Shown: piece by piece, positions 6,751 through 48,554 of the stretch
Numbering within the stretch: position 1 is the stretch's first letter
How the letters are laid out: every line of letters starts with the position of its first letter
DNA from: Mustelus asterias
Lineage: Eukaryota
Direction of reading: 5' to 3'
NCBI RefSeq assembly: GCF_964213995.1
Contig: NC_135808.1
Location: 558,001 to 622,000 of the forward strand
DNA length: 64,000 bases
Position numbers and translations under genes: made by a program
The notes under the pieces: model-generated
Databases searched by the model: none
What the model was told of the DNA's origin: nothing
What the model saw: the letters and a program-made list of their open reading frames with translations, nothing else

Positions 6751-7427
6751 TAATAGGCTTACATTAACACTGCAATGAAGTTACTGTCACCACATTCCAA
6801 CACCTGTTTGGGTACACTGAGCAAGAATTTAGCTTGGCCAAATGCACCTAACCAGCATGTCTTCCGGACTGTGGGAGGAAACTGGAGCACCCGGAGAAAA
6901 CCCACGCTGACAAGGGGAGAACGTGCAGACTCCACACAGACAGTGACAAAAGCCAGGAATTGAACCTGAGTCCCTGGCGCTGTGAGGCAGCAGTGCTAAC
7001 CACTGTGCCACCACTCCTGACTTGTGCCTTATAGATGGTGTACAGGCTTTGGGGGGGAGGGGGGGGGGAGTCAGGAGGTGAGTTACTCTGCAGGATTCTC
7101 AGCCTCAGTATATATATATATATATATATAGTTAATCCAGTCCAGTTTCTGGTCAATGAAAACCCCCAGGATGTTGACTTACCACTTTGGACCAGCGTGT
7201 TGAGGGAGAATGGTCAGCCCGTGTGGGATGGAGACAGGAGGGGAGTTGGCTGGCTGGGGGAAGGAGATGGAACCTCGAATTGTCAGGGAGGGAGGCACGC
7301 GGGCAGGGGGCGGAGTCAAGGTGGCGGCTTGATTGCGGCTGCGCGGTGGGTTGTCTCCACCGCGTCCTCTTTACACCTACATAAGGGGCCGCCGCCGCTG
7401 CTCCCGCTCATTGTTGCGCTGCCGCTG

Positions 7428-8066
7428 ATGGATGAGGCTGTTGAATTTGAGCAGGTGGGTTTGTCCATGACCACGACGGCACCGCTGCCGCCGCCCGTTA
7501 CGGACGGTGGCGCCCCCGCCCTTGTCGTTGCACCTCTCTCTGCCTCCCCCGAGCCGGGTCCCCCAGCGCCACCGCCCCCGCAGCTCTCCGCCTCTCTTCC
7601 CACGGTCGTTGCCGCCGCCAAGAAGAAAAGCACGTACCGCTCGGTGGCCGAGCACATCCTGGAGGCGGTGGCCGCCACCAAGGAGCGCCAGGCGACCCCC
7701 ACTGCTGCCAGGCGAAAGACCATCTCGGCCGCCGACTACGAGGTGGACGGCGCCCGGCCTCGCCATTCTTCGGCCGGTAAAAAGTCGTCGGCCCGAGGCG
7801 GTAAACAGGAGGAGGCCGCCAGAGGGGAGACTCAGAAGAAAGCCGCCGTCGCCAACAGGAAACGTTCTCCTAAGAAGTCGTCGTCGGCTGCCGGAGGATC
7901 GCACCGGAGTTTCAAGGTGCCGAAAGCCCTCAAAAAGTCGTCCAAACTGAGAAAAGCCCCCAAGCGGCCGGTGGAGAGGAAGCGAGTGGCGGGAAAGAGG
8001 AGAAAGAGGCACCGGCAGCAGAGAAAACATCTTAAAAAATACCCCACGATAAAAGGGCTCTTTTAA
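7428..8066 (+). CDS. Divergent histone H1-like protein 'H1a' (212 aa): acidic/Pro-rich N-terminus, truncated winged-helix, basic tail
   Basis: ATG 7428 follows a GC box (7307-7318) and TACATAA (~7378); SVAEHILEAVAATKER...ISAADYEV matches H1 helices 1-2; K/R-rich tail; GC-rich intronless ORF ending within a histone stem-loop. Confidence 0.7.
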   Translation: MDEAVEFEQVGLSMTTTAPLPPPVTDGGAPALVVAPLSASPEPGPPAPPPPQLSASLPTVVAAAKKKSTYRSVAEHILEAVAATKERQATPTAARRKTISAADYEVDGARPRHSSAGKKSSARGGKQEEAARGETQKKAAVANRKRSPKKSSSAAGGSHRSFKVPKALKKSSKLRKAPKRPVERKRVAGKRRKRHRQQRKHLKKYPTIKGLF

Positions 8067-8071
8067 GAACC
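8056..8071 (+). promoter_or_regulatory. Degenerate histone 3' stem-loop overlapping the H1a stop codon
   Basis: GGCTCT-TTTA-AGAACC (one C.A mismatch); stop TAA at 8064-8066; AATAAA at 8237-8242. Confidence 0.8.
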
Positions 8072-8759
8072 ATTCACATTTCCATAAAAGAAATAACCGA
8101 AAAAACGACCTCAATTAGAGCAGAGTTTTGTCAAATGAATTGTTATTTATGAACTTCCTGTCACTGCCATTGTGACGGAACTTAGTAAAAAAAGCATGTT
8201 TGTAATACCGATGATTTACTTTTAAATCAGTCACCGAATAAAATAAATGTCAGCTGATGCTCCTAACTGCAGATCTTGTGTTGATTTTGTTTTATTTTGA
8301 TTAACCCGGGGACTCTTACCACAGCGGGAAGTGGAGGATATGAAGACAACAGTGGGTTAAAATAAAGTTTGGTCAAAGAAGAAGCGTCTCTTTATTGCAC
8401 TGAAAACTTTATTTATAAAGAACACATTAAATTGTATAGTAGAAAAGCAAAATAAACGGCTGCGACTCAGTTTTGTTACCTATTTACACACATTTCCAGC
8501 AATCTTTGTTATAGTTACTGACAACACATAGAATTAAAAGATTTAAGAAACATCGTGTAGCGCGGCTAAAATTAAGAGCTAATGCTCCAAATTCGACGGG
8601 TTGAACCTTGTCCTGAGCCACTCTCCGAGTCTGTCTCCCTGACTCAGAGATTTCGATGAGTTTTCTGTGAACAGACCTTTCTTCCCCACGGGAAGATGTG
8701 AAAAGAGGAAACACCCTCGCCGCTCGCGCCTCGCTGCGCCTGCGCCAACCGGAATTGCC

Positions 8760-8890: not shown

Positions 8891-8947
8891 AGGATGCGGG
8901 AGTTTTTCAATCTGTTTTCCGCCCGAGTCGGACGAAGTGGAGTTGGA

Positions 8948-9328
8948 ATGCCTGAGCTTGCGGCTAAGGGCGGCGCGTCCCGCAAGGCGTCCAAACAGTC
9001 GCTGACCAAGGTCACCAAGAAGCCGCCCAAGAAGCGGAGGAAAGCCCGCAAGCAGAGCTACTCCACTTACGTGTACCGGGTGCTGACCCAGGTCCACCCG
9101 TCCACCCGCATCTCGTCCAAGGCCATGAACGTCATGAATTCTTTCGTGGTCGACATTTTCGAGCGCATCGCGTCTGAGGCATCGCACCTCATCCACTACA
9201 ACAAGCGGCGTACTATCTCGGCACGGGAGATCCAGAGCGCAGTCCGCCTCATGCTACCGGGCGAGTTAGCCAAACACGCCATCTCCGAGGGCACCAAGGC
9301 GGTCACCAAGTACACCAACTCCGCCTAA
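8948..9328 (+). CDS. H2B: Divergent histone H2B 'H2B-1' (126 aa)
   Basis: MPELAAK...[24 protein letters not shown]...[24 protein letters not shown]; stem-loop GGCTCT-TTTA-AGAGCC at 9387-9402. Confidence 0.95.
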
Positions 9329-22651: not shown

Positions 22652-23068
<417 letters not shown>

Positions 23069-24324: not shown

Positions 24325-24705
24325 TTATTTGCAGCTGGTGTACTTGGTGACCGCCTTGGTGCCCTCGGAGACGGCGTGTTTCGCCAACTCGCCGGGCAGC
24401 AAAAGGCGGACGGTGGTCTGGATCTCCCGAGAGGAGATGGTCTGCCGCTTGCTGTAGCGGATGAGGCGGGAGGCCTCGCAGGCGATCCGATCGAAGATGT
24501 CGTTGACGAACGAGTTGATGACGCTCATGGCAGAGGAAGAGATACCGGTGTCCGGGTGGACCTGCTTCAGCACCTTGTAGATGTAGATGCTGTAGCTCTC
24601 CTTGCGGCTCTTCTTACGCTTCTTCTCGCCCTTGGCGCGCCTCTTGGTGGCTGCTTTCTTCAGCCCCTTCTTGGGAGCCATACCCTTTGCCGCCGCTTCA
24701 GGCAT
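24325..24705 (-). CDS. H2B: Divergent histone H2B 'H2B-2' (126 aa, two Cys)
   Basis: [13 protein letters not shown]...[24 protein letters not shown]...RIACEASR...KYTSCK; octamer ATTTGCAT(-) 24777-24784; stem-loop 24262-24277(-). Confidence 0.95.
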
Positions 24706-41985: not shown

Positions 41986-42315
<330 letters not shown>

Positions 42316-45038: not shown

Positions 45039-45749
45039 ATGGCGGACGTTGAATCCGTGGACATGGATTTCCCTGCTCCGGCGGTCTCTCCGCCGCCTCC
45101 CCCACCCCGCCCACTACCACCTCCAGACGTGAATGAGGCGGTGGACTTCGCGGTGGCGGTGAAGAAAAAACGGCGGCCGTATCGCCACAAAAAGTTCGGT
45201 TGCACGGTGGCTGAACACATAATGAAGGCGGTGGCAGCCACCAAGGAGCGACGGGGCCTCTCGGTGGCCGCTATGAAGAAGATGTTGTCGGCCAGCGGTT
45301 GTAAACAGCGCCGCAGCAAGTCGCGGGTCACCCAGCCCGTTCGCAGCTTCCTCAAACGGGATTCGCTGGTCAAAGCGCCTGGCAGTCTCGCTGCCTCCAC
45401 CAGGCTGGGCGACGCCACAGGAAAACTGGGCATCGAAGCAAAGAAAGGCGAAGGGTCGACCGTGGTCTCTGTCTTTGAAACCAGGCGGAACCGCAGGAGG
45501 AAGGCGGCCCCCCACCCAAAGAGGGCGGTCAAAAGGCAGCGCAAGCCAGCCAGGAGAAAGTCGCTGAAAAGTAAAAGGTGGGCGGGACGGAGCAACAAAA
45601 GGCCGAACTTCCGAAAGGCCTCCCCGATCAGGAGGTCGGCCAGTGTCAATCCGGTCTGCCGGCCGCAGGAAGAGTCCAATACCCCTAACCCCGTGGCGCG
45701 AAGTGGAGAATCGACCTGTGGAGAAAACTGCTCTTCTCAGAGCCACTAA
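45039..45749 (+). CDS. Divergent histone H1-like protein 'H1b' (236 aa): Pro-rich N-terminus, divergent winged-helix, Arg-rich tail, 5 Cys
   Basis: TVAEHIMKAVAATKERRGLSVAAMKKMLSASG...SRVTQPVRSFLKRDSLVK matches H1 globular helices 1-3; GC box 44860-44871; TTTAAATA 44946-44953. Confidence 0.75.
   Translation: MADVESVDMDFPAPAVSPPPPPPRPLPPPDVNEAVDFAVAVKKKRRPYRHKKFGCTVAEHIMKAVAATKERRGLSVAAMKKMLSASGCKQRRSKSRVTQPVRSFLKRDSLVKAPGSLAASTRLGDATGKLGIEAKKGEGSTVVSVFETRRNRRRKAAPHPKRAVKRQRKPARRKSLKSKRWAGRSNKRPNFRKASPIRRSASVNPVCRPQEESNTPNPVARSGESTCGENCSSQSH
45729..45744 (+). promoter_or_regulatory. Degenerate histone stem-loop inside the H1b CDS
   Basis: TGCTCT-TCTC-AGAGCC followed by ACTAA (stop TAA 45747-45749); AATAAA at 45828-45833 and 45912-45917. 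Confidence 0.8.
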
Positions 45750-46906
45750 ATATCAGTAAAAAGGGGCCAGATCGATTCAGACTAAAAAGATATAGTTAAT
45801 GTAACGTTGAAAGAAAAGTTTTGATTTAATAAAGTGAAAGTTAAGACGTAACTAGTATTATTTATTTGGCTGTTTTGGGTTTTTATATAGTTAACTGGAT
45901 GTAAGTGATTTAATAAAGGATTAAAGACGTACACGTTTTTTATGCAGTAAATATACAAAACCAAATGTCCGACCCTGGAAAATGGGTTAAAATGTTTGAT
46001 AAAGAGCATTAAAATATACAAATCTAGGTTATACAGACCCTCAACAGACGTAAGATGCTGAAAATATTAGGATTCAATAAATTGAGAGAAGTCTTGTAGA
46101 CTGCAAATTACTGACAGTAAATTGGGCCACCAGAAGGGCGGGAACTGGTCCCAGACACTGAGTAACCTGGTGTCAGAATCATGTGTTCAAGGGAAAAAGT
46201 ATTGCTTTGTGGGGTGTTGTATGTAGGACAAGACCCCATTACAAAGCAAATTACTGCAAAATACTTAGCTGAAAAAAGCGGGTCACTGAAAAGGCCAGAT
46301 GACACTTGCTGAACGTTGCATAAAGGGAGAATTAAGATACAAGTATTTTTATTTAAGTCCTTGCACGGGTTGGCGGAAACCCGGTACAAAGCAAATTACC
46401 GCAGCTGCTGGAAACAATGGGTAACAGCGGGAGGGGACCAGGGCGTTACCAAATATCTTTGGATGCACCCGACTAAGGAAGGAGGGGTGGAGTGAGAGGG
46501 GTTTTAAGGTTTGAACTTGCAAACTGACCGGAAGCTTTCATTTTGCTAAGGCAGGGAGGAACAGGGCGCCCAGTGGGCTGCGGCTCCGAGTGGGAGGACT
46601 CGTCCGCTTTGAGTGTTAGGGAGCATGCGCGGGGTGGGTTGGGGAACACGTGCGCTGAATGGGCTCTGGAGCATCCTCCAAGTGGGTTGTGGAGCATGCG
46701 CCGAATAGGTGGGCGAACACGCGCCGGCTCCCAGTGGGAGGACTCGCGTCTATCACGTCGGCCTTGAGAGTTGAAAAAGCGCCGCCGCCGCTGCCCGTGC
46801 TGTCGTTCTGCTCCCGGCGGCAAAGAGCGCGGGAGGGAGGGACGAGGAGACGGCTGCAGTCTGGGAGGGCGGCGAAGGGAAGGTGCTAAAGGCGCCACCG
46901 CCGCAA

Positions 46907-47568
46907 ATGGCTTCGGGCGATCTGCTCGAAGGCCCCTCCCGAGGCAGAAAGCCGAGACGGCGGAGGGGCCCGCCGCCCTCCAGGGTGCGGCAAGCGGCGG
47001 GAGCGCCCACCGTGTCGGGCCACATCGTGGAGGCGGTGGCCTCTTCCCGGGGGAGCCGCAGCCAATCGCTGGCCGGCGTCAAGAAGGCGCTGTCGGCCGC
47101 CGGCTACGACGTGCCGCGGATCAACTCGCGGGTGAACCAAGCGGTGCGGAGCCTGGTCAGCGGCGGCTCGCTGCTCCAGACCGCCGGCACCGGGGCCTCC
47201 GGCTCCTTAAGGATCAACCGGCAGCATCTGGAGGGACAGAGCCGCGCCTCCGCCGCCCCCAAAGCCCAGGGGGGAGAGCGGCCGCTGGGCCCAGAGCCAA
47301 GGTGAAGAGGAGCCGGGCCCGGCTGAAGAAGAAACCGGGAGGAGGCCGGAGGAAAGGAGCCGCTGTCGGCGGCGGGCGGAGGAAAAGAGCCAAAGCCACC
47401 GGCGTCCGGAGGTTGGGCGGGCGGCTCCGGAAAGCGCGCGAGGAGCCGGCGCCTGAAGGGGATCCGGCCGCCGGGCAGGAAGGGGAAGAAGAGGCGGCAG
47501 CAACTGAGAAAGAAACCGAGGAAACAACCGGGCGGCAGGAAAGCAAAACGGTGAAGGAGGAAAAATAA
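46907..47568 (+). CDS. Histone H1 variant 'H1c' with a 1-nt frameshift (assembly error or pseudogene); 220 aa if restored
   Basis: Globular domain PTVSGHIVEAVASSRGSRSQSLAGVKKALSAAGYDV...QTAGTGASGSLRIN in one frame, which stops at 47305. Basic then acidic tail in the -1 frame to 47568. Adding one G to the G6 run at 47269-47274 fuses them. Perfect stem-loop 47591-47606 and HDE AGAAAGAG ~47621. Confidence 0.75.
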
Positions 47569-48146
47569 AGAATAAAAATAAATAACAAAAGGCTCTTTTC
47601 AGAGCCACCGACTCCCTCAGAGAAAGAGGAATAATCAGAAAATAAACCCCCAAATTCATAAAACATCCTCTAAAAATCATTGGTAATCAAACACTGGATG
47701 TTGCAAATGTGAAATAAAAATAGAAAATACTGGAAAAAGCCAACCTCGGGGGAGAAAATCTTTCCGAAAGGGTAGATTTTCCGGTCCCGCCGCAGGAGAG
47801 GGATAATCTGAAATTAAATTAGAAAATGTTGGAAACACCCAGCAAATGTCAGCATCTGGGGGAAGGGAAACTAGGTTTAATTTTTCACCAGGACTCGGGA
47901 AAGTTCATGAAGGTTTTACGCAGAGAAGATTGGGGAGGAGGGAGAGAAGTGTAGAAATGTTACAGAGGGTTTCGTGTATCCGGGAGGAGAAATGTGGAAA
48001 TGTTGCTGTTTCTCAGAGGAGCCAATTAGAAAAGGCCAGTTGCAATCCGACATTAGCATAGGGCTGTTTATATAAGAGGAGGCTGGAGTAGCTGTCTGCA
48101 TTTGGGAAGCGAGTGCACAGGAAGGGGAACATTGGAAGATCTGGCC

Positions 48147-48554
48147 ATGCCGACTGCCGCTGTCTCCACCAGTGCCACCACCGTGGGCTCCAAGGGCTCC
48201 CTGTCCAAAAAAGGCTCCAAGAAGACAGCAATGAAGATGTCCAGGAAGGGGGACAAGAAGCACCGGCGCAGCAGGAAAGAGAGTTACAGCATCTACATCT
48301 ACAAGGTGCTGAAGCAGGTCCACCCGGACACCGGCATCTCCTCCAAGGCCATGAGTGTCATCAACTCGTTCGTTAGCGACATCTTCGAGCGCATCGCCGG
48401 CGAGGCTTCCCGCCTGGTCCACTACACCCGGCGCCAGACCATCTCCTCCCGGGAGATCCAGAGCGCTGTCCGCCTCCTGCTGCCGGGAGAGCTGGCCAAG
48501 CACGCTGTCTCCGAGGGCACTAAGGCGGTCACCAAGTACACCAGCTCAAAGTAG
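48147..48554 (+). CDS. H2B: Histone H2B 'H2B-3' with extended Ser/Thr-rich N-tail (135 aa)
   Basis: [18 protein letters not shown]...[24 protein letters not shown]...KYTSSK; CCAAT 48022, ATTAGCAT 48052-48059, TTTATATAA ~48067; stem-loop GGCTCT-TCTA-AGAGCC at 48593-48608. Confidence 0.95.

Follow-up and report, generated by a model that had tools for sequence, protein, structure and literature searches.

A stop loss particular to one shark lineage carries an H1-derived reading frame into an older, likely obsolete histone stem-loop

By comparison of sequences, H1a, an H1-like gene in the 64,000-nucleotide stretch of Mustelus asterias DNA analysed here (the window), has undergone a lineage-specific stop loss, and its reading frame now runs into a histone hairpin that is older than the loss and likely obsolete. 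The reading that we favour, and hold to be somewhat better than an even bet, is that polyadenylation came first in this fast-evolving, H1-derived gene and a passive stop loss was tolerated afterwards, the overlap of frame and hairpin being a harmless leftover. The locus would then offer a datable snapshot of a clustered histone gene leaving the stem-loop pathway, in which hairpin damage and a poly(A) site came first and the frame swallowed the relic later, and sister species with and without the stop would form a natural pair for asking if stop-hairpin spacing matters once a poly(A) site is available. The impact of the stop loss is modest, given that it is a point change confined to one lineage, in a gene that is redundant and evolves fast.

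Like replication-dependent histone genes, H1a is an uninterrupted open reading frame (ORF) within a histone cluster; the window holds nine stem-loops and, besides H1a, an H2A gene, three H2B genes, an H3, an H4 and two further H1-like genes (H1b and H1c). The ORF (7428-8066, forward strand, as are all H1a features below) encodes a protein of 212 residues, the ancestral form having had 192. Its start is placed at the first ATG past a putative TATA-like promoter element (7378-7384) that aligns with the TATATAA of two paralogues, and the protein of a related shark (relative B, in which one contig spans the region) begins Met-Ala, as does the family. At its 3' end the ORF enters a worn histone stem-loop (8056-8071, GGCTCT-TTTA-AGAACC) in which C8058 stands opposite A8069, a mismatch common to relative B. 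The codons across the hairpin read GGG (8055), CTC (8058), TTT (8061) and TAA (8064-8066), the present stop thus taking the last two loop bases (3 and 4) and the base that opens the 3' stem. A sequence-only reading of the locus had described both the stop codon in the loop and the C·A mismatch in the stem, and both are seen in the sequence.

The codon at 8004-8006 is AAG (Lys) in the window and TAG in relative B and the paralogues. Relative B carries T at 8004, and with it the in-frame TAG, in all three runs (two samples). The same TAG ends two intact paralogues that lie on the contig of the window (C8:528k and C8:285k); their hairpins are perfect, and AATAAA is absent within 300 nt. At the protein level, the old stop position is the protein end in 13 of 16 database family members, the exceptions being P0003, P0009 and P0016. 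These comparisons bear out two earlier claims, that the original stop was lost and that the 3' UTR was absorbed into the protein: 60 nt (8004-8063), comprising the old stop and former 3' UTR, became 20 codons, eight of them for Lys or Arg and none for Asp or Glu. On the same evidence the loop TAA is also new and occurs in the window lineage only; it needs A8065, which is C in both intact paralogues and in relative B (3/3 runs, 2 samples), where it yields the common TTTC loop. Whether orthologues keep the stop-in-loop arrangement had been named as a check, and relative B instead stops at the TAG, 49 nt (window spacing) before the hairpin. Because relative B has TAG at 8004, C at 8065 and five extra bases within 8037-8051, the stop-in-loop arrangement appears particular to the window lineage. 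The former distance of 49 nt falls inside the span of 29-58 nt seen at the six core-histone genes in the window and inside the published stop-to-hairpin range of 20-75 nt (PMC7407380); human histone genes have 22-67 nt (10.1101/720235), and the median for core histones in a survey covering 2,281 metazoan species is 30 nt (bioRxiv 10.64898/2026.10.14.759114). The present stop lies inside the hairpin rather than 20-75 nt before it.

An assembly or base-calling error at 8004, or an upstream indel, is scarcely credible as the source of this arrangement. Contigs of run X1 (7700-8270) and of run X2 (7200-8560, in two overlapping pieces) show 0 differing letters and 0 gaps, and the frame agrees with relative B and the paralogues up to 8003; what leaves an error some room is that X1 and X2 represent one same-species sample, possibly the assembly's source, and that contigs drop second alleles. 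As far as these contigs tell, the ORF arrangement is not the assembly indel that the sequence-only reading had itself considered. Position 8004 is covered in one individual of the species, so the stop loss may be a private allele; X3 and X9, same-species runs from other samples, hold only parts of 7233-7764 (8/30 and 10/30 bins), with 8004 outside. Run X9 starts upstream of the TATA-like element, and its loose ends resemble what we take to be a transposase adapter. An upstream frameshift was also considered as a separate candidate (the other frame has an acidic tail and TAA at 8033) and was ruled out, as relative B and the paralogues share the frame and the stop at 8004.

The order of events is indicated by relative B, which has none of its listed differences at 8069, 8201-8204 or 8237-8247 (26 of the 29 other letters in run X4 are listed, and a comparison of X4 with the two X5 pieces places the remaining three, by inference, at stretch ends). 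The C·A mismatch, two AATAAA motifs and a TGTA element are unchanged in this species with a normal TAG, and are therefore older than the stop loss. The sequence-only reading had the gene lose its stop and then switch to polyadenylation, an order that these older signals do not support. It is accordingly very improbable that the stop loss itself disabled the hairpin and that the gene is now switching to poly(A), even though the gene did lose its stop recently, its poly(A) site appears complete and older sequence signals need not have been in use before.

Under the favoured course of events, this copy, as the comparison shows, already carried the mismatch, both AATAAA motifs and TGTA before the split from relative B. 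The poly(A) route then likely took over 3' end formation, which would have freed the hairpin and the stop-to-hairpin spacing from selection. C8065A and T8004A then occurred, in either order and, as relative B and the paralogues show, in the window lineage only. A ribosome translating the present ORF would unwind the hairpin in each round, and SLBP could not remain on the translated mRNA. Histone decay intermediates accumulate 15-17 nt past the stop, the position of the terminating ribosome (PMC9745837), and from this footprint a ribosome at 8064 would cover the remaining hairpin; in human cells, forced read-through into histone hairpins reduced translation and stabilised the mRNA (PMC7089771). 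The earlier claim that translation into the hairpin conflicts with SLBP binding is thus sound. On its simplest resolution this conflict has no cost, the end of the mRNA having probably been at the poly(A) site beforehand: a polyadenylated mRNA ending near 8271, with a 3' UTR of ~200 nt, would not need SLBP. For a basic protein that is mostly disordered, the extra basic tail is probably neutral.

The AATAAA motifs reported at 8237 and 8242 are present and overlap (8237-8247). Bare AATAAA is unremarkable: one occurs in 31% and two in 5% of 2000 shuffles of the 200 nt past the hairpin, and 7 of 19 distinct hairpin contexts have AATAAA within 200 nt. A poly(A) site consists of an upstream UGUA, an AAUAAA 10-30 nt before CA and a U/GU-rich downstream element (PMC4421977), and the 3' flank of H1a has every part of this putative site, namely TGTA at 8201-8204, the AATAAA pair, and a CA (predicted cleavage at 8270-8271) followed by a U/GU-rich element, the last two spanning 8270-8302, with 83% T+G in the 30 nt after CA 8270. 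Among 107 AATAAA motifs in the window (both strands), the one at 8242 ties with one at 45828 for the highest T+G in the downstream 30 nt, and the combination of TGTA, CA and T+G of at least 0.8 occurs only at 8237 and 8242. The tied site lies behind H1b and was not used in choosing the score; across 32 hairpin contexts, such a poly(A)-like site is found behind H1a and H1b only and is absent at five other weak hairpins. The first downstream-element scoring window was picked after the sequence had been seen; over eight such windows, the better of 8237 and 8242 ranks 1-9 in seven and 19 in one. Mere chance as an account of the AATAAA pair was dropped once its context (TGTA, CA and rank of the downstream element) had been scored. 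Of the proposed switch to polyadenylation, what stands is the complete architecture of a poly(A) site, read from sequence only; what is not supported is a single ongoing switch, since the signals predate the stop loss.

The hairpin itself is damaged in part. The G-C pair at position 2 of the stem and the U at loop position 3, diagnostic for the histone stem-loop (bioRxiv 10.64898/2026.10.14.759114), are intact, and five of the six pairs of the canonical 6-bp stem with its 4-nt loop are present. Its energy is -2.6 kcal/mol, with 55 of 200 shuffles equally stable, against -9.3 or -9.4 kcal/mol for seven of the eight other window hairpins and -5.3 kcal/mol for that of H1b; it falls under the Rfam Histone3 gathering score and is not among the three Histone3 matches in the window. 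An exact-pattern search of the 3.68-Gb genome places the C·A mismatched hairpin at six sites: H1a, two cases of a second hairpin following H2A genes, one hairpin after an intact H3, and two places that lack an upstream histone frame. The H3 in question is canonical; its normal stop lies 28 nt upstream of the mismatched hairpin, AATAAA is absent within 250 nt, and the mismatch alone is therefore no proof of a poly(A) switch. A purine run 15 nt after the stem (8086-8093) is a candidate histone downstream element by its position, compared with 10.1101/720235; a U7 search of the genome found no match.

What remains of the hairpin bears on a further reading, which we regard as unlikely: that U7 still cuts after the hairpin and that the loop TAA was selected as a last, backup stop against a non-stop short mRNA. 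H1a would then produce a natural tail-less histone mRNA whose translation ends in its own hairpin and which, with SLBP evicted, escapes S-phase decay; ribosomes stripping SLBP would leave it poorly translated and decay-resistant, as forced read-through in human cells lowered translation and stabilised mRNA (PMC7089771). Before the predicted cut at ~8076 the frame has no stop other than the TAA at 8064, which appeared in the lineage that lost the old stop; stem pair 2 and loop U3 are intact, and the purine run follows the stem. Yet the hairpin barely folds at its -2.6 kcal/mol and a complete poly(A) site lies downstream, and TAA occupies the same loop/stem junction in four of the nine window hairpins, which gives ~15% chance of an in-frame one. 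Were it true, the shark cluster would, with H1b, contain a pair of such genes from an H1-derived family not yet described.

The protein encoded by H1a retains a remnant of the linker-histone globular domain, from helix 1 to DYEVD (7641-7745), whose later part is diverged and shortened. The window copy is without eight motif-region codons just before helix 1, which relative B and the family keep. H1a has no Pfam linker-histone match up to E 1, and the linker-histone match is weak in 2 of 12 aligned family members (best E 0.017); it is only with the profile of the whole family that the GH1 structure is matched, at E 1.5e-9. The AlphaFold model is weak (pLDDT 53, pTM 0.16) and has one helix (residues 70-84). 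A Lys/Arg-rich C-terminal tail is present and a complete winged-helix domain is not. On these searches the protein is H1-derived but has no recognisable linker-histone domain, and the description of H1a as a linker histone has to be given up to that extent. A homologue search with the H1a protein itself returned 0 of 2916 candidates at E 0.01, and family members P0001-P0016 were reached by a search from a paralogue; the best relatives of the window H1-like genes are in sharks and rays. As far as these alignments go, the family is H1-like and elasmobranch-wide, conserves its helix-1 motif but has a strongly diverged second globular half, and falls below the Pfam cut-off; it is possibly of more interest than the stop loss itself. 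Its members comprise window 7428-8066, L033 1560-2135 (-), L035 1362-1919 (+) and P0001-P0016, and its intact paralogues keep perfect stem-loops. Dispersed broken copies (L036, L040 and L041), perhaps retrocopies, lose their likeness just before the stem-loop. A literature search judged on titles and abstract starts found no paper on the family. Elasmobranch predicted proteins named 'histone H1-like', all by automatic annotation, share the helix-1 motif and basic tail, and most end at the position of the lost TAG; compared with them, H1a has a reduced middle part and 20 extra residues at its end.

The main rival of the favoured reading, possible but doubtful, is that H1a is a decaying copy, a young or incipient pseudogene in which selection has gone in the window lineage, drift accounting for the stop loss, the altered loop and the deletion of eight codons. 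Between H1a and relative B, dN/dS is 0.91 (9 synonymous and 22 non-synonymous changes; Fisher p 0.84), calculated over 155 of 192 codons with 33 unlisted and 4 deleted codons excluded, and no purifying selection on amino acids is visible. Disordered basic proteins often change fast, and a dN/dS near 1 therefore does not settle whether the gene is alive or dead. Decay is also favoured by the globular fold not being predicted, by the existence of two intact paralogues, by a 16-nt frameshift in the neighbouring H1c and by change of the old TAG in two of three dispersed family remnants (TGG and TTG). Against it, each of the six indel events that separate the two species within the ORF leaves the frame intact (-6, +3, -6, +24, +3, +3), in contrast to those of the 3' flank (+1, +1, +2, +1, -17, -8, -2), and none of the 30 changed codons is a stop; the +24 event is +19 and +5 at 7640-7641 counted as one, and record coordinates exclude hidden indels in 7200-8270. 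GC-rich triplet repeats favour in-frame indels anyway, which counts against the favoured reading. Nor is there an excess of changes on the window lineage, to which four of nine polarised changes fall against five on relative B (three unclear), with polarising having worked at 12 of 53 sites. The CpG island is intact (observed/expected 0.99), and similar proteins are found in bamboo shark, sawshark and sawfish, both of which also speak against decay.

If the favoured reading of an earlier move to polyadenylation is right, H1a would join an already known kind, that of clustered histone genes with poly(A) forms and of H2AJ and H2AX (PMC5100578, PMC9526256). Human HIST1H1C is likewise a cluster member with a single ORF in which a poly(A) signal follows a kept stem-loop (Lyons et al. 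2016, PMC5100578), but there the 3' UTR contains the hairpin and use is made of both ends, whereas that of H1a is mismatched, inside the ORF and known from DNA alone. H2AJ, of replication-dependent lineage and with polyadenylated mRNA only (Seal et al. 2022, PMC9526256), represents a plausible end state for H1a, although it is a core histone with shown expression and no stem-loop left. The bimorphic mRNA of H2AX combines, as H1a does, a stem-loop and a poly(A) signal in one gene, but its intact hairpin is used in S phase (PMC9526256), and a ribosome would not cross it. In drug-forced read-through (Wangen and Green 2020, PMC7089771), ribosomes enter the hairpin as they would in H1a; there the effect is pharmacological, partial and on tail-less mRNAs, while in H1a it is genetic and complete, with the stop in the loop. 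A search of titles and abstract starts, with subscription papers mostly outside its reach, found no title dealing with a stop that naturally falls within a histone hairpin, and the available parts of PMC4604434, PMC10388802 and 10.64898/2026.06.11.731563 mention neither a mismatch at stem position 3 nor a naturally lost stop.

Several further observations concern the neighbouring genes. H1b (window 45039-45749) reads through its own worn hairpin (45729-45744, -5.3 kcal/mol) and stops just past it; a TGTA/AATAAA/U-rich site follows 83 nt further on, with AATAAA at 45828. The deletion in H1c (window 46907-47606) appears to be a frameshifting loss of 16 nt near 47272, seen against an intact, 97% identical paralogue at C8:321k. 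Three dissimilar H2B genes (8894-9328, 24325-24705 and 48147-48554) and slightly unusual H3 (22652-23062) and H4 (42004-42315) genes, all with intact stem-loops, give the appearance of a divergent-variant cluster. Tandem stem-loop pairs in which the second is worn occur at L058 (1187 and 1501) and L045 (1892 and 2023, minus strand). Finally, C8:280-322 kb and C8:528-606 kb carry near-identical H1 and H2B genes in opposite orientation, which suggests a segmental duplication.
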